Shown here piece after piece: positions 26,948-49,280 of a stretch of DNA of 64,000 nucleotides. Under the pieces are notes generated by a model. It made no database searches. It saw only the letters and a program-made list of their open reading frames with translations, and was not told where the DNA came from. The first letter of the stretch is position 1. Every line of letters starts with the position of its first letter. The translations under genes and the position numbers were made by a program. The DNA comes from Candidatus Curtissbacteria bacterium. GTDB lineage: Bacteria; Patescibacteriota; Microgenomatia; Curtissbacterales; GWA2-41-24. Where the stretch lies: NCBI GenBank assembly GCA_016183325.1, contig JACPEV010000003.1, forward strand, positions 18,000 to 81,999. The letters are read 5' to 3'.

Positions 26948-26960
26948 TGGGTTTATTTCT

Positions 26961-27254: not shown

Positions 27255-27261
27255 AAAGTAT

Positions 27262-27327: not shown

Positions 27328-27860
27328 GATTTAATTGATTTTTTTAAAATTAAATCAAGATTTGAATCTTTGATGATTTTGTCTAAATAAGGTAGAAATT
27401 TTTGCTTGTAGAAATTGAATTCTTTTTCGGATTCTTTTGAATTTTTGGTCGTTTCAATCTCGAAAATTTTGCCGACAGTTAATATATTATCTAGATTGAA
27501 GATTGTATTGCCTTTTTTCCAAAGCTCGCGTTTTTTGTAAACAGTAGCTTTAATTCCTAAAACTTTTTTCAGATATGGTAAAAGTTTTTTATCTTTTACA
27601 GAAAGTAGGCTTACTTTTGCTTGGTTGCTTTTGTTTTCTTGAAAAGCTCTTCTTTTGTAATAAATTATGGTTTGTTTCCCTTTCTGTATTCTTAATTTAA
27701 GTCTTGGATGGATCTTGATATCCGATTGAGGTAAGTTGAAAAAGTAATCTTTTTGAAAAAAAGTTCCAACTTTCTTGGCATTTAACTCTTTTAGAATTTT
27801 CCTAATTGGAGAAAAATCGTTGCAAAAATACTTCAGCTCGAGATTAACTTTATTTTGCAT
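27303..27860 (-). CDS. CYTH-domain protein (triphosphate tunnel metalloenzyme / class IV adenylate cyclase-like)
   Basis: N-terminal VNLELKYF (ExExK), spaced basic residues (KLRIQKGK, IIYYKRR) and FEIETT acidic motif typical of CYTH/CyaB folds. Directly follows the GNAT gene with a 0 nt gap. Confidence 0.5.
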   Translation of the reverse strand: MQNKVNLELKYFCNDFSPIRKILKELNAKKVGTFFQKDYFFNLPQSDIKIHPRLKLRIQKGKQTIIYYKRRAFQENKSNQAKVSLLSVKDKKLLPYLKKVLGIKATVYKKRELWKKGNTIFNLDNILTVGKIFEIETTKNSKESEKEFNFYKQKFLPYLDKIIKDSNLDLILKKSIKSHSNNLDH

Positions 27861-28421
27861 CTAGAAAGTCAGATTTTGGTACATTAATATTTGATCGATA
27901 AATTTGTCCCGGTGGACTATTCCTTTTGGAAGCACACCATATTTTTTAAACCCGAAGTTTTTATACATTTCAATCGCTATATTATTGTTTGCATAGACAA
28001 CTAGCGTGACAATTTTTAGATTGAAGAGATTTTTCCCTGCTTCTTCTAAAATTTTTTCTGTTAAAAGTTTCCCGATGCCTTGATTTCTAAATTGTTTGGC
28101 CACCGAAATGCCAAAATCACCAACATGTGTTTCAACTCTTTCTCTAAGTGTTATGTTTGCGATCCCAATTAAGGCCTTTTGGGAGTAGGCCAAGATGTGA
28201 ATATCTTCATTTTTATTCATTTTATTAAGAACGTTATCTAAATATTTTTTTTCTTCGTCAACTGTTAGTTGTTGTCCTTGGAAACTGATATACGTACGCT
28301 CTTTTGAAAGCGTGTTGATGTAATTTAAAAGATCTTTGAGATCATTCGCTTCGGGGTAACGTAAAACAATTGGGAGACCGTTTTTAATTTTGCCTTCGAA
28401 GATAATTTGTCCTGGTTGCAT
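27861..28421 (-). CDS. GNAT family N-acetyltransferase
   Basis: Acetyl-CoA binding motif FRNQGIGKLLTEKILEEAG and C-terminal YKNFGFKKYG. 186 aa. Confidence 0.75.
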   Translation of the reverse strand: MQPGQIIFEGKIKNGLPIVLRYPEANDLKDLLNYINTLSKERTYISFQGQQLTVDEEKKYLDNVLNKMNKNEDIHILAYSQKALIGIANITLRERVETHVGDFGISVAKQFRNQGIGKLLTEKILEEAGKNLFNLKIVTLVVYANNNIAIEMYKNFGFKKYGVLPKGIVHRDKFIDQILMYQNLTF

Positions 28422-28428
28422 AAATAAG

Positions 28429-28494
28429 ATTATATCCTAAGCTGTCGCTTTAGAAGATTTCTAAGCTTAATACTCTATTACTCTAGAGTAACGG
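28429..28494. repeat. cassette-boundary palindrome, copy 5
   Basis: attatatcctaagctgtcgctttagaagatttctaagcttaatactctattactctagagtaacgg. Confidence 0.8.
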
Positions 28495-28512
28495 TAATTT
28501 GTACTTTTAGAA

Positions 28513-28593
28513 TCTCGACTCGCAGAGCTATTCCAATATTCCAAACCGGGTTTAGAATACGTTGGCGAATAAGGTTGGCTCTGCAATTTCTGA
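28513..28593. repeat. conserved ~75 bp hairpin-forming element, copy 2
   Basis: cgactcgcagagctattccaatattccaaaccgggtttagaatacgttggcgaataaggttggctctgcaatttctga. Paired with the copy at 22358-22431. Confidence 0.6.
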
Positions 28594-28670
28594 CAAAATT
28601 CCTGTGAACTACATCACTTCCGATGTGTGTTTGTTGACAAAGTGGTTCCGATATTATAGGATATGTTCCT

Positions 28671-29192
28671 ATGGCTAACGTCGAACAAGACCCAAACTCA
28701 GGAGAGGCCATTATAGTTGATCCAAGATCTCGTGCTGAGTTCTGGGCTTCACAGGGTATTCCCTTTGCCACTCACGAATTTGCGATTTATGCAAATCTTG
28801 CTGAACAAGAAAGAGACTCTTTAATGACGGAGGCTCATTTGAATGCGGCTGAGAGAGCTAAAAAGTTGTCTTTGCAGGAGATAACTGACATAAAAACTGG
28901 GCCTTTTGAAACAACTCCAAAGGACGTTCAGTGGGCTGATTATTGGACCCGAAGAGTCCTAGGTATCGCTGATTATTCTGGATTTGGCTTATCAAGAAGG
29001 CAAGTTCTAACTAACCTGTTTACAAGAGACGACAAACTTGGAAACGCGGCCAGAGAGACATTTATTACTGCTTGGGAGTCTTTGGTAACCTATTTGAGAA
29101 CGGCAACAGAGCAAGCAAAACCTGAGACTCAAGCCCACTTAGAACTAGCGAAATACTTGCAACAAAGATCCGAACAAAGAGGAACTATCTAA
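28671..29192 (+). CDS. hypothetical cytoplasmic protein
   Basis: 173 aa ORF with good coding periodicity and no recognisable motif. Confidence 0.4.
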   Translation: MANVEQDPNSGEAIIVDPRSRAEFWASQGIPFATHEFAIYANLAEQERDSLMTEAHLNAAERAKKLSLQEITDIKTGPFETTPKDVQWADYWTRRVLGIADYSGFGLSRRQVLTNLFTRDDKLGNAARETFITAWESLVTYLRTATEQAKPETQAHLELAKYLQQRSEQRGTI

Positions 29193-29243
29193 TCTTCAAA
29201 ACTCTATTTATCATACTCTGTAGTATGGTATTAAAGTGATTTA

Positions 29244-31115
29244 TTATATTTTTAATACAGCTAAGAATGCCTCTTGGGGAATATCTACTTGCCCAAAACG
29301 CCTCATTCTCTTTTTGCCTTTTTTCTGCTTCTCAAGTAGTTTCATTTTGCGGGTGACGTCGCCGCCGTAGAGTTTGGCGGTGACGTCTTTGCGGTACGAG
29401 GCGATTGTTTCTCGGGCGATGATTTTGCCCGCCCCCTTCGCCGAGGCTACGGAGGCCGAGCCGATGGCCGCCTGAATCGGTATAGGAATTTGTTGGCGAG
29501 GAATGGCATCTTTTAGTTTTTCGCAAAGTTTTCGGGCAATTTCTTCCGCGCGCACTCGCGGCACTATTTGGGACAGCCCTTCTATCGGTTCGTGGTTAAC
29601 CAGAATATCAAGTTTAACAAGATCGGCCGGGCGATAGTCTGCTATTTCAAAATCTAATGAGGCATAGCCCGAGGTTTGTGACTTGAGCTGATCATAGAAG
29701 CCGATTAAAAGTTCAAGAAGGGGAATTTTCGCTTCTATTTTTAAAAGATTGCCGATTGTTTCAAAATTTTCTTGCTCTCCCCTTTTATCGGTGATAAGCT
29801 TTGACACTACTCCCGAATAAGCCTGAGGAACAAATATCGTAACGCTGGCGATGGGCTCTTTGACGTTTTTTTCAGTCGGGTCAAAATCGCCGGCTTTGTT
29901 GATCAGTTTGTCGTTAACAATGAAATTGACAGAGGGAGAAGTTGTAATGATGTCCAGATCGTATTCACGCTCAAGGCGTTCTTGGGTGATTTGAGCATGC
30001 AAAAGTCCTAAAAAACCAATTCTGAATCCTTGGCCAAGACTGATGGAAGATTCTGTGGTGAAGCTAAGCGATGAATCATTTAGTTTGAGTTTTTCGAGTG
30101 CATCTTTGAGTTTGACAAGGTCTTTGGGGTCTGAGGGGTAAAATGACAGGAAAACAACAGGTTTGGCCGCTTGATAACCAGGAAGTGGTTGAGCCGGCGA
30201 TTTGGGATCGGTGATAGTATCTCCAACTTTTACTTTTGATAAATCTTTAAGGTTAGTTACAACAAAGGCGATCTCCCCGCTGGTTACGTTTTCGACGAAG
30301 TGGGGTTTGGGGGTAAGATAACCTATTTGCAAAATGGTGGCCTTGGCATTCGGGTTGGCCAAAAATAAAATCCGGTCCCCCACATTTATTCTGCCTCCAA
30401 AGACACGGACCGTTGCAACGACACCTTTGTAAGGGTCTAGGGAAGAATCGAAGATTAGTGCTTGGGGTTTGCTCACCCCCGGGGAGCCAGAGCTCACCCC
30501 GGGGGTGTTGCCTGGCGCAGGAATGCGGTCAATTATTGCACGAATAACTGCTTCGACACCCTCGCCGGTTCTGGCGGAGACTTTGATGATTTCTTTTTCG
30601 GAAAATCCAAGAGAGACCAGTTCTTGTGCCGTCTTTTCAATTTGAGCTTGTGGCAAATCAATTTTGTTAATCACCGGAATAATAGTTAAATTGGCTTCAA
30701 GGGCAAGATTAAAATTGGCCAAAGTTTGAGCTTGGATTCCCTGAGTTGCATCGACTACCAGAACTGCGCCTTCTACAGAAGCAAGTGATCGTGAAACTTC
30801 GTAGGAAAAGTCGACGTGGCCGGGAGTATCGATCAAATTCAAAACAAAGTTTTGAATTTGAGGTGAATCGTTAATGGTTAATGGTTCATCGGGAGATTCT
30901 TTTTCAATACGATTAACGATAAACGATGAACGATACACTAATCGTATGGCTTTCAACTTAATGGTGATGCCGTGTTCGCGCTCAAGCTCTAGGCTGTCGA
31001 GAAGTTGTTCTGGGTGATTTTGATCAACTGCACCGCAGATTTCCATGATACGGTCGGCAAGAGTCGATTTACCGTGGTCGACGTGGGCGATGAGGGCAAA
31101 ATTACGAATTTCCAT
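29244..31115 (-). CDS. lepA: elongation factor 4 (LepA), with two short in-frame insertions
   Basis: NFALIAHVDHGKSTLADR, DTPGHVDFSYEV, NKIDLP, and C-terminal LepA domain ending ...[24 protein letters not shown]. Inserts: an about 25 aa segment encoded by TTAACGAT-type repeats (30868-30960) and PAPGNTPGVSSGSPGVS encoded by a GC-rich palindrome (30471-30508). Confidence 0.9.
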   Translation of the reverse strand: MEIRNFALIAHVDHGKSTLADRIMEICGAVDQNHPEQLLDSLELEREHGITIKLKAIRLVYRSSFIVNRIEKESPDEPLTINDSPQIQNFVLNLIDTPGHVDFSYEVSRSLASVEGAVLVVDATQGIQAQTLANFNLALEANLTIIPVINKIDLPQAQIEKTAQELVSLGFSEKEIIKVSARTGEGVEAVIRAIIDRIPAPGNTPGVSSGSPGVSKPQALIFDSSLDPYKGVVATVRVFGGRINVGDRILFLANPNAKATILQIGYLTPKPHFVENVTSGEIAFVVTNLKDLSKVKVGDTITDPKSPAQPLPGYQAAKPVVFLSFYPSDPKDLVKLKDALEKLKLNDSSLSFTTESSISLGQGFRIGFLGLLHAQITQERLEREYDLDIITTSPSVNFIVNDKLINKAGDFDPTEKNVKEPIASVTIFVPQAYSGVVSKLITDKRGEQENFETIGNLLKIEAKIPLLELLIGFYDQLKSQTSGYASLDFEIADYRPADLVKLDILVNHEPIEGLSQIVPRVRAEEIARKLCEKLKDAIPRQQIPIPIQAAIGSASVASAKGAGKIIARETIASYRKDVTAKLYGGDVTRKMKLLEKQKKGKKRMRRFGQVDIPQEAFLAVLKI

Positions 31116-31280: not shown

Positions 31281-31430
31281 TACGAAATTAGTTACTGGAA
31301 ATTTGATAATAGTAATGGAGAGTGGAAAATGGAAAATGACTTAATTAATGCTTTCCAATCTCCCTCAGGGCCGGGCCAGAGGCAAGTTTCGATTACCATT
31401 TTCCAGTTTCTAGTTACCAATCTCTAAATT
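31281..31430. repeat. left arm of long inverted repeat flanking murJ
   Basis: Reverse complement of 33110-33262 at about 85-90% over about 130 bp, including the perfect core ccaatctccctcagggccgggccagaggcaa. Confidence 0.8.
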
Positions 31431-33098
31431 TCACGGGTTTGGCTGTTGGGCGTCGATAGAGGTTGGGGCGGGACTAACCAGGCGGGATGGTAAGGTGATG
31501 ACTTTTTTAACTAAATGATAAAAAATTACGACTTCTTTAACTTTGAGAAGCCAGGATAGAAAAATATAAACTGAAAGACCGATCAGGGTGGCGGTTGCTG
31601 TTAGAAAAATTAATCCGATGGTTCTGGTTGTGTCAAAGACAAGTTGATCTAGAAGTTTCATGGGGATATAGAGTGCAACTGCGGTTAAAAGTGCAATAAG
31701 GCCCATTTTGAATGCTGGAAGAAGTAGCTCTTTTTTGTTAAAAACTACTTTTTTATCCAAAAGATAGAGCAGCAAAATGGCGTTTAAAATGTTGCTTATA
31801 GAGTATGCTAGGGCAAGATAAATGATCGATAGTTTGAGAACTAAAATAAAAATCAGACTTAAGATGATGTTAATACTGACTGTAAAAACATTAACCTTTA
31901 CTGGAGTTAGACTATCTCTTATGGCATAAAATCCTCTCAAAAGAAGAAGACTGACGGCTTGGGCGGCAATACCTATCGAAAAGGCCATCAGCGTTCTGCC
32001 AGTTAAGACTGTGATCTCCCAGGGAAATTCGCGAGCACCGAAGACAAGACGTACAGCAGGAATTCTCAGAATTGCCAGGATGGCAGCAGCGGGCAAAATT
32101 AGAAAGAGAATCTGATGGAAGGAATCGATGAATATCTTTTTAAACTGTTCATATCTTTTGGCATTAAATTCAACAGAAAGTGAAGGCAGAGCTGCCTGGA
32201 CGATACTGCCAGCAAAAAGAGAGATTGGCAAAAGCTGTAAAACTTGGGCGAAGGTAAAGGTAACGATTGAACCTACGGCGACGACTGATGCAAGAGCTAT
32301 GTTTATAATGTCAGAAATTCTAAGAAGAGCAAGAGATATCGACCTTGGCCACATTAAAGCAAATACTTCACGAACATCTTTATTTTTAAAATCCAAGATA
32401 AACGTCACTCGAAACCCTAGGGAAAGAGCGAGTGGCAATTGAATAACCAAATGCAGAAGAGCGCCTAGGACCATACCAACCGCGGGAGCGTAAATGCCCA
32501 AAACAGGAGCTAAAAAAATGATTGAGATAATAATACCGACGTTATAAAAAATCGAGGCAATTGCTGGAATAATGAATCTTTGAAATGATTGGAGAATACC
32601 TGTCAAAAAAATCGAGCCGACAAAGAAAAGTTGGGCAAAAATCATGATACGCATGAGACGGGCGATTAGTGGTTTGGTAAGAGGATCTTGATCCACAAGG
32701 CCAGGAGCAACGATAGGTGCTATAAAATCGGCAGTGGCGACGATTAAAATAGCAAAAATAACAAAAACTAAAAGGGCAGTAGAAATCATGGTGGATGAAA
32801 AATTCCAAGCTTTTTCGAGCTTGTCGTGGGAGAGAAATTTGGAGAAAACTGGAATGAAAGCCAAGGCAATTGTTCCGAAGATCAAAACTTCAAATATGGC
32901 ATCGGGTACGATTGAGGCAGCGATGAAGCTATCCAGAAGATGAATATTATCACCAAAGTAAGAGGCTAAAAGACGGTAGCGGATCAGTCCTAAGATCCTG
33001 GAGATGGCGACCGAGGCAACGATAACAAAGGCGGCAGTAAGGATATTTTCTTGTTTTCTCTTGAAAAAATCAGTGCCATTTTTGAGGATGTACAGCAT
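31431..33098 (-). CDS. murJ: lipid II flippase MurJ (MviN)
   Basis: 555 aa polytopic membrane protein with MurJ N-terminal signature ...ILTAAFVIVASVAISRILGLIRYRLLASYFG... Confidence 0.85.
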   Translation of the reverse strand: MLYILKNGTDFFKRKQENILTAAFVIVASVAISRILGLIRYRLLASYFGDNIHLLDSFIAASIVPDAIFEVLIFGTIALAFIPVFSKFLSHDKLEKAWNFSSTMISTALLVFVIFAILIVATADFIAPIVAPGLVDQDPLTKPLIARLMRIMIFAQLFFVGSIFLTGILQSFQRFIIPAIASIFYNVGIIISIIFLAPVLGIYAPAVGMVLGALLHLVIQLPLALSLGFRVTFILDFKNKDVREVFALMWPRSISLALLRISDIINIALASVVAVGSIVTFTFAQVLQLLPISLFAGSIVQAALPSLSVEFNAKRYEQFKKIFIDSFHQILFLILPAAAILAILRIPAVRLVFGAREFPWEITVLTGRTLMAFSIGIAAQAVSLLLLRGFYAIRDSLTPVKVNVFTVSINIILSLIFILVLKLSIIYLALAYSISNILNAILLLYLLDKKVVFNKKELLLPAFKMGLIALLTAVALYIPMKLLDQLVFDTTRTIGLIFLTATATLIGLSVYIFLSWLLKVKEVVIFYHLVKKVITLPSRLVSPAPTSIDAQQPNP

Positions 33099-33109: not shown

Positions 33110-33262
33110 ACTTGCGAAACTCGAAACCTAGAAATTGGTTACTGGAAACTGGAAATTGGTAATGGAAATTTGCCTCTGGCCCGGCCCTGAGGGAGATTGG
33201 AAATTAGTTAGGAGCTATTTTCCCATTTTCTACTTTCCACTTTCCATTACTACTTTCTCTTT
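33110..33262. repeat. right arm of long inverted repeat flanking murJ
   Basis: ttgcctctggcccggccctgagggagattgg plus flanking ggaaattggtaatggaaa-type sequence. Inverted relative to 31281-31430. Confidence 0.8.
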
Positions 33263-36099: not shown

Positions 36100-36143
36100 A
36101 AATGCCCCAAGTTTCGTCAGTTGCAGGAATTTAAAGAAGTAAA

Positions 36144-36182
36144 CTATACAAATTTCTGACGATCGTCAAAGAACAGTATAAA
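36144..36182. repeat. solo copy of the IS-end palindrome (cTGACGATCGTCA core)
   Basis: ctatacaaatttctgacgatcgtcaaagaacagtataaa matches the ends of the IS at 14309-15794. Confidence 0.6.
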
Positions 36183-36306
36183 TTAAATTTGATACTATGA
36201 TTCGAATCATTAGAACAATTGCTGCTAAACAAATCCAGCAATTTAATAATAAAACAATAGAACAATTATTATAATCTATAAATTTGAAGAGGGAGAAGAT
36301 ATTAGT

Positions 36307-37182
36307 TTATATTTTTGTATAGTATTTTTCATTTGTTCCATAAACAGTACAGGTATGTGCACCAACAGACAAACTTAGCTTAGGGACAGGGTATGATTTG
36401 TCCTTAATGGAATAAAATTTCCAATCTTTACTTAAATCTTCTATAGCGGCACTAGAGCTCGGCTCACCCCAAACTACAAGTGTTCCCGGGACAAATTTCT
36501 GATACTCTTTATATTCGTTTCTATGCTCTTTTAAATATTTTTCTGCACATTCAATTGCTTCTTCAGGAGAATAGTCAATATTGGCTATAGATAATTCTGG
36601 ATCGTTAATCTTAAAGTGCTCGGGCAAATCCCAATAAACATTACAAGTTTGAGCCCCAACGTAAAAATTGGGACTAAAGGGAAATTTTTCGGGCTTGGTT
36701 TTATGATTCATATACATGAAGTAGCAGAATTTGTCTTCTTTGCTATATTTGCTGTTTTTTTCTAAAAGTTGTGAGCAAGAATAAGACTCTTTTCCCGATT
36801 CTTTATCATCAATAATTAGACTGCTCAAGATGGGATATACGATTTGGTTTTCAGCTACGAAATCCTTTACGCATTGCTTAGCTTGTTCAGGTGTAACCTC
36901 TTTATATTCGTCTTTTAAATAGAGATCCTTATATTCACAAGTATAACCTCCTAACACACATCCAAAATTATCACTCCCTCCTCCGCAATAAGCAGCTAAA
37001 TTACACTTATCTTTAGGACAACCATTTTCCATTGAACAGTAAGAGAAAAGTACGTTGGGAACTGGGTTAGTATAGAGGATTTGTCTAGAAATGGATCTAG
37101 AGTGGATGAAATAAAAGATTCCACCTGTTACAAGTAGTCCTATTACAACCAAGATTAAAATCGGAGCAAAACCGCGGCGCAC
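36307..37182 (-). CDS. secreted protein of unknown function (MRRGFAPILIL signal-peptide family), GTG start
   Basis: GTG at 37180-37182 gives MRRGFAPILILVVIGLLV..., the same N-terminus as the ATG-initiated paralog at 39204-40250. Cys-rich mature region. The track ORF extends further upstream only as stop-free read-through. Confidence 0.55.
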   Translation of the reverse strand: MRRGFAPILILVVIGLLVTGGIFYFIHSRSISRQILYTNPVPNVLFSYCSMENGCPKDKCNLAAYCGGGSDNFGCVLGGYTCEYKDLYLKDEYKEVTPEQAKQCVKDFVAENQIVYPILSSLIIDDKESGKESYSCSQLLEKNSKYSKEDKFCYFMYMNHKTKPEKFPFSPNFYVGAQTCNVYWDLPEHFKINDPELSIANIDYSPEEAIECAEKYLKEHRNEYKEYQKFVPGTLVVWGEPSSSAAIEDLSKDWKFYSIKDKSYPVPKLSLSVGAHTCTVYGTNEKYYTKI

Positions 37183-37225
37183 AATTTTATAATTGCACTT
37201 TTTACGGCCGTTGACAATGGAGAAC

Positions 37226-37489
37226 ATCTGTGTGTATAATTGTGTGTATATGAGAACAAATGTAATTTTACCTGATGATTTAATTGCAGAAATAGATAAG
37301 ATAGCGGGCGCCAGAAAAAGAAGTAAATTCTTAGAAGAAGCCGCACGTGATCGGATTGAGTCAGAAAAATTAATGGATGCTTTTGAAAAAGCTCGAGGTA
37401 TTTTGAAGAACGATCCCAGATTTGCCACCAGAGCTAAAGTCCGCAAGTATATTCGTGACTTCAGACGCAAAAATAGTTACAGATTCTAA
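37226..37489 (+). CDS. vapB: ribbon-helix-helix (CopG-like) antitoxin. Track ORF starts at 37193.
   Basis: MRTNVILPDDLIAEIDKIAGARKRSKFLEEAARDRI RHH motif. Followed 2 nt later by a PIN gene. Confidence 0.55.
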   Translation: MCVYNCVYMRTNVILPDDLIAEIDKIAGARKRSKFLEEAARDRIESEKLMDAFEKARGILKNDPRFATRAKVRKYIRDFRRKNSYRF

Positions 37490-37491
37490 TC

Positions 37492-37869
37492 ATGCCCGTG
37501 GTTAGATATCTTCTTGACTCCGACGTAATCATAGAATATCTAAAAGATAACAGAGAAACAGTCACGCTTATAAATAAGACTGGTGGTAAAGGGTTATCTT
37601 GCAGCGTTTTAACTATTATTGAGGTTAAACGAGGCGTGAGACCAAAACAAGAAGCTACTTCAGCAGATTTATTCAAAATAATCAAAGCTTACCCTGTGGA
37701 TAAACAGATTGCAGAACTTGCTGTTGCTTTTGCACGGGAATGGCAGGGAAAGGGCAAATTTTTGCAGCTAGTTGATGCTTGCATTGCCGCAACTTGTGTT
37801 ATCTACGATTTGACTCTGGTTACGTATAACAAGCGTGATTATCCGATGAAAGAGCTGAGGATAATTTAG
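37492..37869 (+). CDS. vapC: PIN-domain toxin (VapC family)
   Basis: MPVVRYLLDSDVIIEYL...IAATCVIYDLTLVTYNKRDY. Confidence 0.7.
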   Translation: MPVVRYLLDSDVIIEYLKDNRETVTLINKTGGKGLSCSVLTIIEVKRGVRPKQEATSADLFKIIKAYPVDKQIAELAVAFAREWQGKGKFLQLVDACIAATCVIYDLTLVTYNKRDYPMKELRII

Positions 37870-37929
37870 TCGAGGAATTTGTCCACCTAATCTTACCTCA
37901 AGTCTTTTCATCCGCCAGTTGGCGGAACG

Positions 37930-38060
37930 ACTTGAAGAGCGATCTTTGGCGGATCAGTCTATAAACTGAAAGGTGGAGAGGATTTGGTTGAATTAAAATC
38001 GGAGCAAAACCGCGGCGCATACTTTTATCTTGGCAGTTTTGGCGCAGTTTTACAAATTCT
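37930..38060. repeat. gene-end mini-repeat: 3'-end motif plus promoter/5' start of the secreted-protein family, without a gene body
   Basis: ctgaaaggtggagaggatttgg (the QILSTFQF-encoding 3' motif) is joined directly to attaaaatcggagcaaaaccgcggcgcat (the MRRGFAPILI start) and the conserved upstream cttggcagtttt promoter region. The same arrangement recurs at 38820-38905. Confidence 0.65.
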
Positions 38061-38138
38061 GACATAACTACTCGCGTAGTTACTTACAAAGTAATGGATA
38101 TTGACAAATGTAATGCAATTTGTTAAATTTAATGCATT

Positions 38139-38390
38139 ATGAGCTATATTGTTTCCATCACCTCACAAGGGCAAATTAGCATCCCGGCAAAAATACGTCG
38201 AGAGCTTGGATTGGATAAAAAGAAAAAGGCATTAGTGACGGTCAAGGAAGGAAATATTGTCGTGGAACCTGTAAAGGATTTGCTGGAACTGCGAGGTTCA
38301 TTAAAAACTACTATAAAAGCGACCCGTAAACAAATTCGTGATGCGTTCGAAACGTATCTGGGGAAAGAAGCTGTTAAAGGGATAAGGTGA
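38139..38390 (+). CDS. AbrB/MazE/SpoVT-type antitoxin
   Basis: MSYIVSITSQGQISIPAKIRRELGL swapped-hairpin motif. Overlaps the downstream PIN gene by 4 nt. Confidence 0.6.
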   Translation: MSYIVSITSQGQISIPAKIRRELGLDKKKKALVTVKEGNIVVEPVKDLLELRGSLKTTIKATRKQIRDAFETYLGKEAVKGIR

Positions 38391-38770
38391 CGAGAACTGT
38401 TATTGACGCAAATGCTTTCCTAAGACTTCTATTGGACGATATCCCAAGCCAAGCAGATCAAATTCAAAAGATTCTTCTTGAAGCGAAGAAAAATAAAAAG
38501 GAGTTGTTAGTACCGCAGATTATTATTTTTGAAATAGTGTTTGCTCTCGAGAAATATTATCATTTTCCTAAACAAAAAATTGTAGATAATATTAAGTCAA
38601 TTTTAGCAATGAGGTATTTTAAAATTCAAGACAGAGAAATCTTTAAAAGGGCAATAGATCTTTTTGATAAAAAGAATGTTTCATTAACTGATTGTTTTCT
38701 TGTGTATTTTGTACAGCACAACGATGCAAATCTCTTCAGTTTCGATAAAGATTTAAAGAAATTACAGTAA
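38387..38770 (+). CDS. vapC: PIN-domain toxin (VapC family)
   Basis: MTRTVIDANAFLRLLLDD...LTDCFLVYF...FSFDKD. Confidence 0.7.
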   Translation: MTRTVIDANAFLRLLLDDIPSQADQIQKILLEAKKNKKELLVPQIIIFEIVFALEKYYHFPKQKIVDNIKSILAMRYFKIQDREIFKRAIDLFDKKNVSLTDCFLVYFVQHNDANLFSFDKDLKKLQ

Positions 38771-38819
38771 AAGATAAGCTTCATTACTCTTTAAAGTAGA
38801 TTAGTCGGGGGATTGATCC

Positions 38820-38905
38820 TACTTTTAGCGGATCAGTTAATAAACTGAAAGGTGGAGAGGATTTGGTTGAATTAAAATCGGGGCAAAACCGCGGCGCATA
38901 CTTTT
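38820..38905. repeat. gene-end mini-repeat, second copy
   Basis: ttagcggatcagttaataaactgaaaggtggagaggatttggttgaattaaaatcggggcaaaaccgcggcgcatac is near-identical to 37930-38010. Confidence 0.65.
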
Positions 38906-39203
38906 ATCATGGCAGTTGGAGAGAAAAGAGTCAAAGTTTCAATGAGTCTATGAAATACCAAAACCACGCAATAGCGTGAAAGTGGTATGTGGACCGTTTT
39001 GGTTGCTAGGGTAAACTCAGTGATGAATCTTACAGCACATTGTCATTGCGAGGAGTCCTTCGACTTCTCTCAGGACGAGAAAGCAATCTAATACATAAAA
39101 AATTGATTCGTTTCACTCGCGATGACAAATGTAATTATCCAGTTTAAAGATCTAAAGGTGAAGCAGATTTGTTTCTAACTTAATGGGATTTCTCACTAAA
39201 AAG

Positions 39204-40250
39204 TTATTTAAGTCTTTGATATTTCACCCCATCCCAATCTAATAGTTCTTGATTAAAATCATAACTAGTAGAAATAGGTCCGCCAGACTCACTTTTTGCA
39301 TTCAATAAATTATTCTTACATGAATAAAAACCACTCTCTGAGAAATCGGAGTGATTCCACTCGAAAGTTGACTGTCCATAGTCTGAAAGAGTTGTTCCCT
39401 CTTGAAATTGTATACTCCAATAACCCATTTCAGCTCCATTTGGTCCAAGTCCAACCTCATGCTTATCTACCGAACGAAAAGTAGAATTACTAAAAAGAGT
39501 ACAAAAATCTGAATTATTTGGTCCGATCTGGGAATTTAAAAATTTAAAGGTGGAGAGGATTTGGTGAAAAACTCCAAGAATATCATTCTTTTTAAGATAA
39601 GTATCCCAATAATGAATGACGATCACTATCAGTGAGCCATCAAAATTGCCGGGTATATAGTATGTTTTTGTTATCTGCGATGTATGATTTGATTCATAAA
39701 TACAGAGTGGATGGGAGACTTGCACCATTGCCCTGACATTTCCTATTATTACTTCGTTCGGTTCATTCAAGTAATATATACCGGCTGGTCCTTGGCAGGC
39801 TATTGGCGTCTCGCTTAGGTTAATTTTCCAGAAAGAACTTTTGGGATTAAATAATTCTGCTTGCGTAATTTCCTTTTCTCCATATTTTTTTCTAAATTCT
39901 GTTGTTTCTACTGATATTTCTCCATAAACTCTGCTAGGTTGATCTATTTCATAATAAATTTCTGCATTTCGGGCTTCATTTTCGAAATCAGCATTAGTGT
40001 TACTAATGATTTTAAATTGCCAAGAATCAGGGTATTTCAGGGTAAATTTTCCCACTGTATTTGTATATGTCTTCCAATTGGCCCCGATTGAATCGGGGTT
40101 AGCTGTTTCGTCGGTTGAAGATGGGGACGGTGATGTTGTTGATTGAGGTTGTGATTGAGTTTTAGGTTTACTTTGCTGATATAGAAAGGCTCCGATTACA
40201 GAGATAGCAACTATGATTAGAATTAAAATCGGGGCAAAACCGCGGCGCAT
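39204..40250 (-). CDS. secreted protein of unknown function (MRRGFAPILIL / YTNxxGKFxLKYPxxW family) with internal QILSTFKFL motif and C-terminal extension
   Basis: Signal peptide, S/T/P-rich linker, WKTYTNTVGKFTLKYPDSWQF start of the mature domain. Paralogous to 36307-37182 and the partial gene at 63577-64000. Confidence 0.6.
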   Translation of the reverse strand: MRRGFAPILILIIVAISVIGAFLYQQSKPKTQSQPQSTTSPSPSSTDETANPDSIGANWKTYTNTVGKFTLKYPDSWQFKIISNTNADFENEARNAEIYYEIDQPSRVYGEISVETTEFRKKYGEKEITQAELFNPKSSFWKINLSETPIACQGPAGIYYLNEPNEVIIGNVRAMVQVSHPLCIYESNHTSQITKTYYIPGNFDGSLIVIVIHYWDTYLKKNDILGVFHQILSTFKFLNSQIGPNNSDFCTLFSNSTFRSVDKHEVGLGPNGAEMGYWSIQFQEGTTLSDYGQSTFEWNHSDFSESGFYSCKNNLLNAKSESGGPISTSYDFNQELLDWDGVKYQRLK

Positions 40251-40495
40251 AATTTTATCTTGGCAGTTTTCGGGAAACTTTACAAACTATACCCCAAATT
40301 CTTTTGGTATACTGAGAAACTATAAGTATTCACCTTTTTCCAATGTCATCCTCGCGAAAGCGAGGATCCAGCTTCAATTAAATAGATTCCCGCATTCGCG
40401 GGAATGACAAGTGGGGGGCGGGAATGACAAATTAACTAAAAACTTAAATTTGCCATCAATTTCTTTTGGTATACTGAGAAACTGACTTTCCCAAG

Positions 40496-42376
40496 ATGGA
40501 CATTTTGAAAGATTTAAATTCAGACCAGATTGCTGCAGTTAAGCAAACCGACGGCCCGGTTTTAATTTTAGCAGGTGCTGGCAGCGGAAAAACAAGAGTT
40601 TTGACATATAAGGTTGCCTATTTGATTCAAAAAGGGATCAGACCGGAAAATATCATTGCCATGACATTCACCAACAAAGCGGCCAATGAGATGAAAGAGA
40701 GGGTCTATCGTCTCCTCCACCTCCGAGGCTTCGGCCGTGAGCTCAGCCGAATCGGTGAAAGCTCCTCACACCTCGGAGGTGTTGCCGGCGGTGATTCACC
40801 ATTTGTTGGGACTTTTCATGCTTTTTGTGCAAAACTACTCCGACTTGACGGCAAATTTATTGGAATACCATCGGGCTATTTAATTTATGACGATGACGAC
40901 AGTCTGAGTTTAATTAAAAAAATTATGTCTGATAACAATATTTCGGTTAAAAATTTCAGGCCGAGTTCAATTTTGAACGCTATTTCTTCTGCAAAAAGTG
41001 AATTAATCGGGCCGACCGATTACATACAGTTTGCAAGAGGTTACTTTGCTGAAACGGTTGCCAAAGTTTATGAACCATATCAGGCGACTTTACATGAAAT
41101 AAATGCTTGCGACTTTGATGATCTTTTAATGCAGACAGTTAGACTTTTTCGAGAATATCCAAATGTCCTTGAAAAATGGGCAGTGCGATTCCAGTACGTA
41201 TTGGTTGACGAATATCAAGACGTAAATACCGCTCAATATGTTTTAACTAAACAACTTGCAAGTGTCCATGGTAATCTGACAGTGGTCGGTGATGCATCCC
41301 AGGCGATTTATTCTTTTAGAGGAGCGGATTTTAGGAATATTTTAAACTTCGAAAGAGACTTCCCTAAGGCGAAGGTTTTTAATTTGGAGCGAAATTATAG
41401 ATCAACTCAGACAATACTTTCGGCTGCAAATGTAGTGATTGCTAAAAACAGTTCACATCCGATTTTGAAACTTTGGACAAAAAACGATCAGGGTGATCTG
41501 ATTAGTACTTACAATGCCCACAATGAAGTCGATGAGGCGAATTTTATTGTTGAGATGATAGTTTCTTCGGGTAAATCGTTGTCTTGCTTCGCTGTACTTT
41601 ACCGAACTAATGCTCAATCAAGAACGATTGAGGAAGCACTCCTTCATGCCAATATTCCCTATAAACTGTACGGCGGGGTAAGTTTCTATGCCAGAAAGGA
41701 AGTCAAAGACGTCTTAGCTTACTTAAGATTGATTGCCAACCCACGCGACAACGTTTCCAAAAATCGGATTGAGAAATTGGGTAAGAAGCGGTATGAGAAA
41801 TTTGAAGAGCTGGTTAAGAGATTCCAAGGGTCGGACCCTCAAGAAAGAAAAGGTTCTAAAAAGGGTCCGACCCTAAATAGGTTGCCACCGATAGATCTTA
41901 TTGATAAAGTTTTGGCGGCAACTGATTACCTAGCACTGATCGATGATGGTTCGGAACAAGGATTATCTCGAGTTGAAAACGTAAAGGAATTACGATCTGT
42001 GGCTGCTGACTTTGAAAATTTGGCAACTTTTTTGGAAGCGGTTACTTTGATGGAGGGTAAGGTTGCCCCTGATAAATCGTATGAGGCCGAGTCTGACTCG
42101 GTGAAGTTGATGACTTTGCATGCTGCAAAGGGATTGGAGTTTGATAATGTTTTTATCATTGGTATGGAGGAAGGACTCTTTCCCCATTCGCGCAGTATGC
42201 TAGACGTGGCGCAGCTTGAGGAAGAAAGAAGATTGGCTTATGTGGGCATGACGCGGGCAAAGCAAAAATTGTACCTAACTTATGCCACAAACCGCCTTTA
42301 TTTTGGAACCCAAAGTTCCAATTTAGTTTCGCGATTTGTGGTGGATATACCGGAAGAATTAATAACCCCCATCTAG
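40496..42376 (+). CDS. pcrA: UvrD/PcrA-family DNA helicase
   Basis: Walker A AGAGSGKT, motif VDEYQD, GDASQAIYSFRGA, and C-terminal YVGMTRAK. 626 aa. Contains a GC-rich palindromic in-frame insert (40713-40781) encoding LHLRGFGRELSRIGESSSHLGGV. Confidence 0.85.
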   Translation: MDILKDLNSDQIAAVKQTDGPVLILAGAGSGKTRVLTYKVAYLIQKGIRPENIIAMTFTNKAANEMKERVYRLLHLRGFGRELSRIGESSSHLGGVAGGDSPFVGTFHAFCAKLLRLDGKFIGIPSGYLIYDDDDSLSLIKKIMSDNNISVKNFRPSSILNAISSAKSELIGPTDYIQFARGYFAETVAKVYEPYQATLHEINACDFDDLLMQTVRLFREYPNVLEKWAVRFQYVLVDEYQDVNTAQYVLTKQLASVHGNLTVVGDASQAIYSFRGADFRNILNFERDFPKAKVFNLERNYRSTQTILSAANVVIAKNSSHPILKLWTKNDQGDLISTYNAHNEVDEANFIVEMIVSSGKSLSCFAVLYRTNAQSRTIEEALLHANIPYKLYGGVSFYARKEVKDVLAYLRLIANPRDNVSKNRIEKLGKKRYEKFEELVKRFQGSDPQERKGSKKGPTLNRLPPIDLIDKVLAATDYLALIDDGSEQGLSRVENVKELRSVAADFENLATFLEAVTLMEGKVAPDKSYEAESDSVKLMTLHAAKGLEFDNVFIIGMEEGLFPHSRSMLDVAQLEEERRLAYVGMTRAKQKLYLTYATNRLYFGTQSSNLVSRFVVDIPEELITPI

Positions 42377-42390: not shown

Positions 42391-43571
42391 ATGATCTTTA
42401 AATCTATCCCCCGGCAAGTTAAAAATCTGGGACTGGTGAGTCTTTTTAATGATATCGCTTCTGAAATGCTTTATCCGGTGATGCCGATTTTTTTAACGCA
42501 AGTGTTGGCGGCTCCAGTTGCTGTGGTGGGCATTATTGAAGGCGTGGCAGAGGGATCTTCTGCAATTTTTAAGACTCTATTTGGCTTGTGGTCGGACAAA
42601 CTTGGCAAGCGGAAAATATTTGTAGTTTTTGGCTATCTTTCTTCGGCGATTGCTAAAGTTATTATTGCTTTATCGATAATTTGGCCATGGGTATTTTTGG
42701 GAAGATTTGTTGACAGATTTGGCAAGGGAGTAAGAACAGGCGCGCGAGATGCTTTGCTTTTGGAAGCGGCTGATAAGAACAATAAGGGGTTGATTTTTGG
42801 CTTTCACAGATCCATGGATAGCGCCGGCGCGGTTTTGGGACCACTGATTGGTTTTTTCCTGCTTTTAAGTTTTGAGGAAAATATCAGATTGATTTTGTAT
42901 TTAGCCGCGATTCCCTCTCTTTTTGCTTTATTCTTTTTGATTTTCATCAAAGATGCCAAAAAAAATGAGAAGAAGAATTTGAGGTTGAGTCTAACTTTTA
43001 AAAATTTACCTAGTCAATTCAAATTATTTCTCTTAACTGTCGCGATTTTTTCGCTGGGAAACAGTTCTGATGTTTTTTTGATATTGCGAGCACAAAATTT
43101 GGGTTTAACTTTGAGCTTGGTGATTCTTGCTTATGTTATTTATAACTTTGTCTACACTTTTGCTTCAACACCCGCCGGAGGTTTCTCGGACAAAATCGGG
43201 CCTAAAAAGATTTTTTGGTGGGAATTTTAATTTATATTGCAGTTTATTTGGGATTTGCATTTACCAATAGTGCCTTTTATGTTTGGCCGCTGTTTGCAAT
43301 TTATGGATTTTATATTGCGCTGACAGATGGAATTGCTAAGGCATTAGTCGGGTCGTATATTGAAAAAGAACAAGCAGGAACGGCGTATGGGGTACTGCAG
43401 ACGACGATTTCCATCTTTACACTTTTGGCATCGGTGATTGGCGGATTTTTGTGGCAGGTAATCTCACCGCAAGCGACTTTTTTATTCGCAGCTGGTTGTG
43501 CCTTGTTAGCTTTGGGATTATTTTTAGCTTATGGCAAGATTAGGGTAAAAGAGGATTTGATTGAACATTGA
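42391..43571 (+). pseudogene. MFS transporter split by a frameshift in a T6 run (about 43205-43212)
   Basis: The track ORF 42391-43230 ends ...DKIGPKKIFWWEF*. The +1 frame continues VGILIYIAVYLGFAF... (43215-43571). One extra T in aagatttttt|ggtggg would restore a single 12-TM MFS protein. Confidence 0.6.
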
Positions 43572-43749
43572 GATTTCGGGTTGACATACTACCTCGGGAA
43601 TCAATAATAGCTATATGAACTTAAAAATATTCGCATTCGCTGTATCGAGAAGTTTAGACTTTTACACTTGGTTCCCTATTTTACTTTTAATATCTATTTT
43701 TAATTAGGGCTTAACCGACGGGCAAATTAAGATTCTTCTTCCGCTTTTA

Positions 43750-44199
43750 TTGTTTTTTGACGTGTTTATTCCCATTTTTCTTTTCTTTTTAATTCTAAAA
43801 AGAGGTGGCATAAGTGACATCGATGTGACTAAACGTGAGGAAAGATATAAGTTATTCGGTGGCATGACAGTGATACTAATTATCCCAACGATTTTTGCCT
43901 ATATTTTCGGTAATAATCTTTTCTTTGTGCTGCATCTAATTTCCTTAATTGCAGCGTTCACGCTGTATTTAATAACTTTACGCTTTAAGATTAGCGGTCA
44001 TCTTATCATGAATAGTGGGGGTATCTTTATTATAAATTATCTGTTTGACTGGAAACTGTTATGGCTTTTTGTAATTGTCCTTATTGTCGCCTTTGCGAGA
44101 ATTTATTTGAAGAAACATACGATTTTGGAAATTTTGACTGGTGGATTGGTAGGATTTCTCGTTCCTTACTTAGTCCTCAAATTTTTTAAGTTAATTTAA
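43750..44199 (+). CDS. small PAP2-like membrane phosphatase domain protein
   Basis: KISGHLIMNSG (PSGH-like) and FARIYLKKHTILEILTGGLVG (SRxxxxxHxxxD-like) within four TM helices. Confidence 0.45.
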   Translation: MFFDVFIPIFLFFLILKRGGISDIDVTKREERYKLFGGMTVILIIPTIFAYIFGNNLFFVLHLISLIAAFTLYLITLRFKISGHLIMNSGGIFIINYLFDWKLLWLFVIVLIVAFARIYLKKHTILEILTGGLVGFLVPYLVLKFFKLI

Positions 44200-44259
44200 A
44201 AGCCGCGCAAAATGCGCAATTGAGAAATTTGCGCGGATAGTGTGGGCTGTGCGGATATT

Positions 44260-44580
44260 TTACAGGTGAGCAGACTTGCTGTTGGTTTGGGGAACAATGC
44301 GAATTTCCAGGCGTGCCTTTAGGGCTTTGGTGATTTTTTCAAGTGTTTTAAAAGTATAAGCCGTGTAATCGGCGGACTCCAGCCGGGCGATGTTTGATTG
44401 TTTGGTACCCACGAGTTTGGCCAATTGAGCTTGAGTTAAACCTGCTTTTTTACGCAAATCGTAAACTTGGAATGCAATATCCCAAGCCCTATCTGCCTTC
44501 TCTAAACCTTCCGCAAGGTTTGGACGTTGTTTTAATAATTTTTCTGTAAATCTATCTAAATCGTCTTTTTTTCTTTTCAT
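44260..44580 (-). CDS. higA: HTH XRE-family antitoxin (HigA-like)
   Basis: GLTQAQLAKLVGTKQSNIARLE helix-turn-helix. Start overlaps the upstream toxin gene stop. Confidence 0.65.
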   Translation of the reverse strand: MKRKKDDLDRFTEKLLKQRPNLAEGLEKADRAWDIAFQVYDLRKKAGLTQAQLAKLVGTKQSNIARLESADYTAYTFKTLEKITKALKARLEIRIVPQTNSKSAHL

Positions 44581-44581
44581 A

Positions 44582-44974
44582 TCAGCTTTCCTTAATTTTA
44601 ATTTCTCTTAATCTTTTTCTAGCCAATTCCAGTTCGTTACTTGGTATCTTCTGTTGCTTCTTTATAAAAACATGTAAAAGAATTATTACTCGCCCTTTTT
44701 CAAAAGTGTATAAGATCCTTAAGATATTATTTCCTGATTTGATCCTTAATTCCCATAATCCAGGTTCAACATATTTTGACAATGGCTCACGATGGTAAGC
44801 CCTCTTTCTTAATTTTTCAATACCGCTTCTGGTTTTGACGACTAAGTCTATATTGGTTTTAGCCAAATCCAGTAGAAATTCTTCGACAGGACTTTTACCA
44901 TCGACGTCTTTATAAAAATAGATTCCAAAGTCCATTTTTATTATATCAATTTTGATATAAAAATCAAGGGGCAA
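44582..44974 (-). CDS. higB: RelE/HigB-like toxin (phage Gp49-like, PF05973-type)
   Basis: ...GLWELRIKSGNNILRILYTFEKGRVIILLHVFIKKQQKIPSNELELARKRL matches the Gp49/HigB-like toxin family that pairs with XRE antitoxins. Confidence 0.6.
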   Translation of the reverse strand: MPLDFYIKIDIIKMDFGIYFYKDVDGKSPVEEFLLDLAKTNIDLVVKTRSGIEKLRKRAYHREPLSKYVEPGLWELRIKSGNNILRILYTFEKGRVIILLHVFIKKQQKIPSNELELARKRLREIKIKES

Positions 44975-48439: not shown

Positions 48440-49024
48440 TTGGTTTCTTCTTGTCGGACTTCGTCAGCGAGGATGACAGTTTTGGGTTATCATGAAATGA
48501 TGGAGGATAACCAACCGCAAAGTTTAGAAGATTTAAACAGGTTATCTCAGCAAAAACAAGAAAAGGAGGCTTCTGTTTTTGGCTATATTATTATCAGCCT
48601 TATTATCCCCCCGTTTAGTACTGCTTGGGCCATGTATCGCGCTTGGAAAAAAGGTGTTTTATATCGATTTGTTCCGGTATTAACAATTGTCTATACGATT
48701 CTTTTTGCACTGTATAGTTGGCTTCTTTTGTCTTCTCCGGGTGCAGTTTCGAGTGTTTTAGGTAAGAATCTACTGAAACAACCAGAAGTACCCAGCGGCC
48801 AAAATACAATATTTGTGATTATGACTGTAGTTTTGACAATAGCCGGGATTGTGGGCGGTTTTTATCTTAGAAATAAAGCGCAGAAAGAAGATACGCTTCC
48901 AACTGTTATGATTTTAGCTCTAATTTTCATTTTGCTATTGCAGTTTTGGGTCGGATTTTCAGAACTTTCATTTGTGGGCTCGATAATAAATCAGTCGGTC
49001 GGGAATATTTATGAAGGTTTGTAG
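48440..49024 (+). CDS. membrane protein, unknown function
   Basis: 194 aa with four hydrophobic helices. Confidence 0.4.
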   Translation: MVSSCRTSSARMTVLGYHEMMEDNQPQSLEDLNRLSQQKQEKEASVFGYIIISLIIPPFSTAWAMYRAWKKGVLYRFVPVLTIVYTILFALYSWLLLSSPGAVSSVLGKNLLKQPEVPSGQNTIFVIMTVVLTIAGIVGGFYLRNKAQKEDTLPTVMILALIFILLLQFWVGFSELSFVGSIINQSVGNIYEGL

Positions 49025-49243
49025 TCAAATTTTGTAGAGCAAAATGCCGTTTTGGGATTTTTCTGGTTTTTTGGTGGGGAAAGGGATGGTTTTGTCGGTG
49101 TTGACGATGATGCGAGCTCCACGCTTGGCGTTTTGATAGACGAATTTTTCAAATCTGGGCATGGTTTTGGCGCGGCCGTAGACGAAAATGACATCGGCTT
49201 CTTTGAGATCGGCTTGCCAGAGGTCTTTGCGAATCACTATCAC
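49025..49243 (-). pseudogene. duplicated 3' fragment of the methyltransferase gene at 49998-50600
   Basis: 49041-49200 is near-identical to 50010-50170 (...DLWQADLKEADVIFVYGRAKTMPRFEKFVYQNAKRGARIIVNTDKTIPFPTK...). The duplication ends at a GC-rich palindrome (49241-49270). Confidence 0.7.
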
Positions 49244-49270
49244 ACCTCCGAGGTGTGAAGAGCTTTCACC
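49241..49270. repeat. GC-rich palindromic element (cacctccgaggtg family), intergenic copy
   Basis: cacacctccgaggtgtgaagagctttcacc. Related copies lie inside pcrA (40713-40781) and inside the large helicase (53103-53140). Confidence 0.7.
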
Positions 49271-49280
49271 TATACGATAA

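Follow-up and report, generated by a model that had tools for sequence, protein, structure and literature searches.

Toxin-Antitoxin Pairs and Apparent Remnants of PsbP-Like Secreted-Protein Genes in a Lineage-Specific Island of a Candidatus Curtissbacteria Genome

The window analysed here (the whole stretch of 64,000 nucleotides) belongs to a genome of Candidatus Curtissbacteria, a member of the Candidate Phyla Radiation (CPR). Between its genes trx and uvrD lies an island (36100-40490) in which two toxin-antitoxin (TA) pairs stand among secreted-protein genes and two short repeated units without a gene body, called mini-units below. The complete gene content of the island is a Cys-rich secreted-protein gene (gene A), the TA pairs TA1 and TA2, and a gene of a PsbP-like secreted-protein family (gene C). 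L numbers (L001, L085, L089-L095, L103, L108, L111, and others) designate contigs or loci from related genomes and metagenomes, L085 and L109 being Logan contigs. In L089-L094 and L001, lytR, tpiA, and trx lie directly beside uvrD (40496-42376 in the window), with 75-105 nt between trx and uvrD against 4.4 kb here; the UvrD of the window matches an NCBI protein of Candidatus Curtissbacteria at 100% identity, that of L089-L094, the nearest other relatives, is 77% identical to it, and that of L001 67%. Because trx and uvrD are adjacent in these relatives, the 4.4 kb constitute a lineage-specific island. Its GC content is 34-39%, versus an average of about 41% for the window. Flanking it, the genes called within about 2.3 kb on the left side and 6 kb on the right side comprise lytR, tpiA, trx, uvrD, an MFS gene, HTH/Gp49 genes, Phd, an RnfD-like gene, and FemAB. 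The features are collected in Table 1.

Table 1: Features of the island and of the right end of the window.
Feature	Position	Strand	Description
Gene A	36307-37182	-	Cys-rich secreted protein, 291 aa, GTG start; outside the PsbP-like family except for the first ~8-24 codons
Gene A 5' module	37154-37217	-	~10 codons (VRRGFAPILI) and promoter-like TTGTCA-17-AATTAT, 6 nt before the start codon
TA1 promoter-like site	37211-37240	+	TTGACA-18-TATAAT, 12/12 matches; inside the block aligning with L095, L103, and L108
TA1 antitoxin	37250-37489	+	Ribbon-helix-helix (VapB-like), 79 aa; PF01402 RHH_1 21.1 bits versus cut-off 20.5 (marginal)
TA1 toxin	37492-37869	+	VapC-type PIN, 125 aa; PF01850 38.2 bits versus cut-off 23.6
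3' flank common to TA1 and former PsbP-like gene	37866-37953		Conserved left end TAGTCGAGGAATTTGTCCACC, then hairpin ~37897-37940
Mini-unit 1, PsbP-like gene relic	37954-38056	-	Promoter-like TTGTAA-17-CAAGAT; ATG 38018-38020; 10 codons MRRGFAPILI; out-of-frame last 12 codons FNQILSTFQFID and stop (37954-37992)
TA2 promoter-like site	38101-38129	+	TTGACA-17-TAAATT
TA2 antitoxin	38139-38390	+	AbrB/MazE-type, 83 aa; PF04014 31.3 bits; TIGR01439 AbrB domain
TA2 toxin	38387-38770	+	PIN domain, 127 aa; PF01850 49.6 bits; GTG start overlaps antitoxin stop by 4 nt (GTGA)
Mini-unit 2, second relic copy	38797-38934	-	Shortened 3' flank (TTAGTCGGGGGATTGATCC); FNQILSTFQFIN and stop at 38833-38871; ATG 38897-38899; promoter-like TTGACT-17-CATGAT
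Non-coding spacer	38935-39203		Terminator-like hairpin 38964-38979; palindromic repeat ~39039-39090; possible degenerate 3' motif 39143-39173
Gene C	39204-40250	-	Sole intact PsbP-like member in the island, 348 aa; signal anchor; PsbP/Mog1-fold domain ending HQILSTFKF (39540-39560); 111-aa C-terminal extension, fold without assignment
Gene C 5' module	40222-40286	-	Start codons and promoter-like TTGTAA-17-CAAGAT
3' part of another PsbP-like gene	63577-64000	-	Ends FDQILSTFQFLD and stop; adjoins PBP gene (61173-63506); window ends here

The assignment of a ribbon-helix-helix (RHH)-PIN pair and an AbrB-PIN pair, made in an earlier note on this DNA, was borne out, since all four proteins exceed the Pfam cut-offs. 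The TA1 genes are co-directional, with the antitoxin first, a 2-nt gap, and a consensus-like promoter. The TA1 toxin (PIN1) is named a VapC family toxin by NCBI and, aligned to VapC 7by2 (solved structure), keeps the acidic residues D9, E43, D95, and D116. The acidic residues of the TA2 toxin (PIN2) were read off the sequence without an alignment, and no relative of solved structure was found for TA2 by sequence. PIN1 and PIN2 are unrelated to each other, and exact-protein look-ups of gene C, the AbrB protein, and PIN2 found none on record. Judged from their sequences, TA1 and TA2 are standard VapBC-type type II modules with predicted toxicity. Like VapBC systems they are two-gene operons in which an RHH or AbrB antitoxin precedes a PIN toxin at very close spacing (the gap in TA1, the overlap in TA2), and as modules they are unremarkable.

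Gene C matches PF18933 weakly (21.4 bits versus a cut-off of 27, over residues 10-102 only), and several of its homologs carry PF18933 or PF01789. The best matches of its AlphaFold model (mean pLDDT 65; means of 10-residue blocks 54-87 across the domain) in the PDB were the PsbP structures 4rth and 2xb3 (E 2.9e-5 and 4.6e-5, TM 0.63 and 0.72 on the target), and the model also matched other PsbP/Mog1-fold proteins, LpqN (6e5d) and Tsi3 (3wa5). According to this model the protein is predicted to have the PsbP-type alpha/beta fold; the modelled likeness to the immunity protein Tsi3 is only a lead. Its homologs are mostly 190-250 aa long and mostly end in QILSTFKF plus 0-3 residues. In gene C the same motif is internal, at about residues 231-237 of 348, where the PsbP-like domain ends. 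By predicted fold or by family, gene C and the intact paralogs of the relatives belong with the PsbP/Mog1-fold proteins (PF18933; 4rth, 2xb3, 6e5d, 3wa5), but the CPR family is distinguished by an anchor M-R/K-x-GFAPI at the N-terminus, the box ETANPDxIGANWKTYTN, and a strand (F)(D/N)QILSTFKF at the C-terminus, around bodies that are only 24-37% identical.

Genes A and C had been taken for paralogs, which they are not. BLASTP aligned them over residues 1-24 only, and gene A falls in a separate, small, Cys-rich family with the motif YCSMENGCPxDKC and varied N-termini among its 23 representatives. It has no match in Pfam or NCBIfam, and neither the 3' motif nor any homology over the mature domain was found in it. 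Of the conserved ends once ascribed to both genes, the promoter and the first ~24 codons are indeed common to them, but the 3' motif is missing from gene A and internal in gene C. The 5' sequence suggests that gene A inherited, or was converted to, the promoter and first codons of the PsbP-like family.

The repeats on which the mini-units are built exceed chance by far. The 28-nt 5' module ATTAAAATCGGRGCAAAACCGCGGCGCA occurs in four copies (at 37154, 37992, 38871, and 40222; 0.00 expected by chance) and the 20-nt 3' motif AAAGGTGGAGAGGATTTGGT also in four (at 37969, 38848, 39546, and 63592; 0.01 expected). All four 5' modules agree except at one site over the 28 nt, synonymous positions included, and the paralogs of L103 vary at such sites. 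The two mini-units, in which the earlier note saw the 3' motif fused directly to the 5' start, are real and 95% identical over 94 nt (37945-38038 versus 38824-38917), but their bounds are better set as in Table 1 (those of the second being approximate), and their N- and C-terminal pieces are out of frame in both, the frame reading F-stop-FNQILSTFQFI(D/N)-stop. The junction GGATTTGGTTGAATTAAAATCGG is identical in the two, and the 5' part of mini-unit 1 is 89.6% identical to the gene C 5' module over 67 nt. Each TA pair of the window has the 5' end of one unit on one side and the 3' end of the following unit on the other. A tandem duplication of a whole TA-plus-relic unit was considered as the origin of this layout and is excluded, because TA1 and TA2 are not duplicates. 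The 3' flank of TA1 has two matches in L095, one at 5370-5440 and a second copy at 4057-4170; the predicted DNA fold of the flank is -14 kcal/mol (z = -1.9). A candidate conserved hairpin, in which the 3' motif (AGGTGGA) would pair with the left end of this flank (TCCACCT), was dropped, for only 7 bp pair and the flank is absent in L103 and L108.

Comparison with the relatives explains mini-unit 1. Positions 37231-37992 align to L095 4736-5479 (74.8% over 762 nt), 37160-37869 to L103 198-903 (73.5%), and 37231-37880 to L108 (74.2%). The L095 alignment takes in the TA1 promoter, both TA genes, the spacer, and the last 13 codons of an intact gene, and it ends at 37992, which is the mini-unit junction; homology with the intact genes of L095 and L108 likewise ends at 37992/37994. 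The L103 homology starts at 37160, inside the first codons of gene A, which in L103 belong to a PsbP-like paralog. In all three relatives an intact PsbP-like gene of 209-229 aa, starting M-R/K-x-G-F/Y and ending F(D/N)QILSTFKFxx and stop, converges on the PIN gene, and ahead of the RHH-PIN pair stands a further secreted-protein gene in opposite orientation. Intact paralogs bracket TA1 there. Since the alignment of the TA1 block stops at the junction exactly where the relatives have an intact gene, mini-unit 1 is an internally deleted PsbP-like gene. The body would have been removed by a single deletion of ~0.6 kb between two GAATT microhomologies, one lying in codons 9-11 and the second 12 codons ahead of the stop; the overlap is visible in the 5' end of gene C (TAGAATTAAAATCGG) and the 3' end of the L108 gene (GGTTGAATTC). 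The identical junction and the 95% identity of the two relics argue for one deletion that was later copied, and the further copy could have arisen through a segmental duplication, through gene conversion acting on an adjacent paralog, or through a circle bearing TA2 that inserted in the Campbell manner, leaving relic copies that now bracket the AbrB-PIN pair. The upstream paralog of TA1 survives only as the promoter and first ~8 codons of gene A. Bodiless relics elsewhere amount to 3 of 125 motif occurrences, and this rarity indicates that the mini-units of the window are a local decay product and not a widespread element. At L095 4057-4209 a second bodiless relic was considered and rejected in favour of a family C-terminus cut by a CAA-to-TAA change in a 153-aa gene. 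This gene ends in STPQPD and stop, with the in-frame continuation ILSTFQLTD and stop (L095 4187-4210, also L096-L102 and L136), and is the same in eight assemblies from different samples.

That the bodiless units are chimeric joins produced by repeat collapse in the assembly is very improbable. The Logan short-read contigs do break exactly at these repeats, but L085, which comes from an independent sample, runs across TA1, mini-unit 1 with its junction, and the start of the AbrB gene, matching the window by eye over the stretch read, and four further contigs end inside the 3' part of mini-unit 1 with the same sequence.

The mini-units could also be functional, as small genes encoding the peptide MRRGFAPILIQPNPLHLSVY... 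or as RNAs antisense to the convergent toxin 3' end that tune the TA pair. All four 5' modules, those of the relics included, keep -35/-10-like hexamers, the 17-nt spacing, and a start codon 6 nt past the -10, and mini-unit 2 retains this geometry despite a different -35 region sequence. At the promoter-like sites of the island (37189-37240, 38027-38129, 38906-38934, and 40257-40286) the start codon lies 6-9 nt past the -10 with no Shine-Dalgarno sequence, as in the L095 homologs, which suggests that the secreted-protein genes and TA operons give leaderless mRNAs from the predicted promoters. Transcription of the relics is possible, since they keep the promoter-like geometry of intact genes, and their promoters are probably still active. 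A function of the mini-units is nevertheless improbable: conservation of the peptide, which has 40 aa in unit 1 and 20 aa in unit 2, does not reach past the DNA repeat, the two coding pieces are joined out of frame, an Rfam scan of the whole window was empty (as was a tRNA scan), and no mini-unit is present beside the TA1 homologs of the relatives, which have intact genes there instead.

TA cassettes are enriched in chromosomal integrons, and cells are killed on their excision (Vibrio superintegron; Richard et al. 2024, PMC13108822). The island resembles the sedentary chromosomal integrons in that a repeat-bounded array is enriched in scattered TA operons, which have promoters of their own and may face either way, and possibly in that loss of a TA pair by recombination between repeats would kill the cell, so that TA pairs would persist and hold the array. 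If the mini-units were attC-type sites and the TA operons cassettes, the units of ~100 nt repeated after each TA cassette would be accounted for, and so would cassettes that have their own promoters and are often inverted, which is typical of sedentary chromosomal integrons (PMC13108822). We consider such a site-specific array extremely improbable. No integrase was found in the island or among the called flanking genes, and no attI; the mini-units do not fold as the imperfect hairpins of attC sites (DNA-fold z of +0.27, -1.07, -1.41, and -0.31 for both units on both strands); and a protein gene that the relatives have in intact form accounts for them fully, through its promoter, start, and C-terminal codons. 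Whereas integrons have attC hairpins, the repeats here are the coding ends and promoters of a paralog family, and the other members of the array are secreted-protein genes with their own promoters and not promoterless cassettes.

The proposal of the earlier note that a tandem array of secreted-protein paralogs with conserved ends was the ancestor of the locus agrees with the intact arrays of L103/L104 and L111, in which PsbP-like genes of 213-228 aa alternate with TA pairs. The order is x, RHH-PIN, P215, AbrB-PIN, P214, Phd-PIN, and P213 in L103, and P220, Phd-PIN, P214, AbrB-PIN, P228, and BrnTA in L111. The further proposal that TA cassettes had replaced the gene bodies fails, because in the intact arrays the TA pairs stand between complete paralogs; the bodies were lost by separate internal deletion. 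The earlier note named as a refutation that related genomes should have the same mini-units and unvaried content, which is not what the relatives show. The TA content at equivalent positions does vary: paralog P215/P228 is followed by RHH-PIN in L103 and by BrnT/BrnA in L111, and the AbrB-PIN pair of the window is inverted and only 28% identical relative to that of L103 (PIN2 versus PIN137). As for TA1, its toxin is 76-79% identical to its homologs and its antitoxin 82-84% identical to their partners in L095, L103, and L108. This is near the 75% identity between the PBP of the window and that of L095, which argues for vertical descent rather than recent transfer. The block lies beside MetRS in L095 and L108, and in L095, where a paralog/TA array is found at PBP, beside PBP as well. 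In the window the PBP gene is followed by another PsbP-like gene, at a distance of 23 kb from the island, which makes the latter probably a fragment of an array that was relocated or copied. The 3' motif at 63577-63620, where the earlier note had proposed to look for another array, is the 3' end of that other PsbP-like gene, but the window ends before a further array could show, and the Logan contig L109 ends 72 nt past PBP.

The frequency of TA modules between such paralogs was determined by scanning metagenomes with the family alignment. The scan gave 80 loci, 36 of which have at least two PsbP-like open reading frames (ORFs), making 52 junctions: 21 abut and 21 have gaps of 401-1500 nt. In a Pfam scan of the ORFs in gaps longer than 400 nt, TA modules were present in 13-14 of the 52 junctions and represent at least eight families (Phd-PIN, AbrB-PIN, HicBA, Doc with a MazE-type partner, MazF, MNT-HEPN, Phd-ParE, DUF433-DUF5615, and possibly DUF6883-DUF4926). 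Among small ORFs, 23 of 35 in the gaps match TA families compared with about 12 (upper bound 20) of 150 elsewhere in the same loci (Fisher p 1e-9 to 1e-12); at the level of junctions the counts are 14/52 versus at most 15/458 (p = 6e-8). In these Microgenomates metagenome loci, TA modules are roughly tenfold commoner between adjacent PsbP-like paralogs than elsewhere. Literature searches on PsbP and CPR, Curtissbacteria and TA, and Patescibacteria and TA or paralogs found nothing on this association.

Some gap contents observed in the scan are less usual. In L110 (986-1567) one ORF of 193 aa between PsbP-like genes has both Phd and PIN domains and may be a fusion or result from a frameshift or assembly error. 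Two-gene modules in TA slots between PsbP-like paralogs at L174 3819-4400 (DUF6883 and DUF4926) and L155 1073-1688 (DUF5674 with a 94-aa partner) are candidate TA-like modules.

The island is likely to be an eroded, relocated piece of an array type that is common in the group, in which PsbP-like genes alternate with type II TA operons and the addictive TA operons outlast their neighbours. Paralog arrays would be prone to recombination through their repeated ends, and DNA between the repeats would be easily gained and lost. TA pairs would accumulate and persist between paralogs because repeat-flanked DNA turns over and loss of an addictive TA pair would kill the cell, so that ordinary genes erode while TA operons stay. 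Several points weigh against this account. The retention, or sieve, mechanism has been deduced solely from the distribution of the TA pairs. The closest relative found has 77% UvrD identity, and the order of relocation, deletion, and copying is not reconstructable. Mini-unit 2 is without independent assembly support, given that short-read contigs break at these repeats, and the enrichment test uses crude ORF calls, partly redundant and non-independent loci, and gaps of at most 2 kb, which favour small genes. Finally, the TA systems of Photorhabdus do not conserve their neighbourhoods (PMC13617665), whereas the linkage of TA1 to the paralogs is kept in four genomes, which could point to a functional or regulatory link.

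More generally, TA systems have been found to gather in spots of high turnover, where the genes around them erode (Belot et al. 2026, PMC13617665). The island is alike in that several TA pairs lie in a small lineage-specific spot between core genes, where the neighbours have decayed and the TA pairs are intact. It is unlike these spots in that its RHH-VapC pair is linked to one paralog family in four genomes at ~75% nucleotide identity, and in that the hotspot is defined by a gene family and not by a mobile-element recombinase.

Cassette exchange by homologous recombination, which overlaps with the reading of an eroded array, is a possible account that we hold only tentatively. Here the conserved paralog ends would be portable arms that swap TA operons or foreign bodies such as that of gene A, and TA2 would have entered as a circle with one relic copy, a single crossover yielding two direct repeats. 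Direct repeats of 94 to ~120 nt around TA2 agree with this, as do copies of the methyltransferase 3' end (205 nt, 88%) that flank a NUDIX-like gene and copies of the lepA 3' end (191 nt, 93.7%) that flank 2.1 kb. The variation in TA content at equivalent positions in L103, L111, and the window is also in its favour, together with the near-identity of the four 5' modules even at synonymous sites, which suggests gene conversion, and with gene A, in which the family promoter and first codons stand on a foreign body. However, neither a presence/absence polymorphism of TA2 nor a circular form was found, nor any donor array having the same relic, the exact-protein look-ups for the two TA2 proteins having given nothing to compare, and an exact-pattern scan of the JGI metagenomes for the 5' module gave 0 matches, the genome and its close kin not being in that collection. 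Exact identity at the ends is short (20-45 nt) and marginal for RecA-type recombination, and bodiless relics are, as noted, rare elsewhere. L105, a candidate for a rearranged array, was rejected, its apparent rearrangement being more simply an assembly path through the near-identical bodies of P214 and P216.

A broader proposal, that the PsbP-like arrays of Microgenomates are integrase-free cassette platforms, appears unlikely. In it the conserved promoter/signal-peptide and C-terminal ends would be recombination arms by which gene bodies are shuffled and small operons captured, and TA pairs would be kept between the units, by selection or selfishly, as a penalty on collapse. If true, such a platform would correspond to the TA-stabilised chromosomal integron but work by homologous recombination, the window would be a snapshot after relocation and collapse, and the gene-end duplications at lepA and the methyltransferase would indicate that this genome generally gains genes in such a way. 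Another parallel is offered by the orphan cassette arrays of contact-dependent inhibition (CDI) and Rhs systems, which consist of tandem units with conserved ends and variable bodies, the ends being thought to permit recombinational swapping. Unlike those arrays, the island has no large toxin gene or delivery system nearby.

The locus itself presents ordinary gene decay and standard VapBC-type modules, and the association of TA pairs with PsbP-like arrays is modestly novel. Should the pattern hold, the idea of TA pairs in repeat arrays, shown for integrons, would extend to plain paralog arrays in reduced CPR genomes, and it would provide a countable system for why chromosomal TA modules sit where they do. 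In such genomes integrons are not expected. The analysis also draws attention to CPR surface proteins of an abundant and uncharacterised family, whose ends are conserved and whose bodies evolve fast.

Other repeats were observed in and around the island. The degenerate 3' motif in the non-coding spacer is a 68% copy in the repeat search and suggestive only; the palindromic repeat of the spacer is presumably of a type common in CPR genomes. Just upstream of uvrD, a 27-nt direct repeat (CAAWTTCTTTTGGTATACTGAGAAACT, 96% identical, 40295-40321 and 40457-40483) encloses a 135-nt palindromic-repeat block (gtcatcctcgcgaaagcgaggatc..., cccgcattcgcgggaatgac), which we again take to be a repeat type common in CPR genomes. 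The stretch 40295-40483 resembles a small insertion by which the promoter region was duplicated. A palindromic element of ~45 nt occurs in at least three copies in the window, one of them (36141-36187) being downstream of gene A, at the island's left edge, and others at 14303-14351 and 15750-15795. Within uvrD, an in-frame insert at 40737-40790 (approximately LRGFGRELSRIGESSSHLGGVAGG) matches short repeats at 49242-49276 and 53103-53130 and is not in the L001 orthologue; it looks like a small repeat element tolerated in a coding region.

Gene-end duplications were found at two other places. At 49023-49243 lies an ORF of 72 aa that repeats the final ~68 aa of the methyltransferase 49998-50600 (88% over 205 nt; region 49996-50600), and the two copies enclose one NUDIX-like gene of 227 aa (49281-49964) that is not at this position in L089; the methyltransferase and TA2 regions have the same signature of gene-end direct repeats around an insert. 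At 26961-27254, on the minus strand, a 97-aa ORF is a chimera of two gene fragments, of which the first ~38 aa copy part of the NUDIX gene 21034-21588 (27139-27247 versus 21404-21512, 98% over 109 nt) and the last 59 aa copy the LepA C-terminus (26961-27150 versus 29244-29434, 93.7% over 191 nt). The two lepA-end copies enclose ~2.1 kb, and lepA, CYTH, and hrcA are contiguous in the relatives. This ORF lies in a second variable region (21000-29200) with TA pairs having PIN toxins (21511-22226 and 24176-24992), GNAT genes, a GC-rich segment (23001-24000, 55% versus ~41%), and an ORF (22820-23494) whose C-terminal stretch resembles, by eye, an excisionase-type helix-turn-helix (HTH). A PIN search found six PIN-domain ORFs in the 64 kb. 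Just past uvrD, 42391-44974 is an insertion relative to L089, with split MFS transporter ORFs, a Phd-type antitoxin, and, at 44260-44974, a Gp49/HigB-like toxin paired with an HTH antitoxin. Inverted repeats of ~130 nt (31307-31432 and 33123-33252, 81-83% identical) lie on both sides of murJ (31431-33098).

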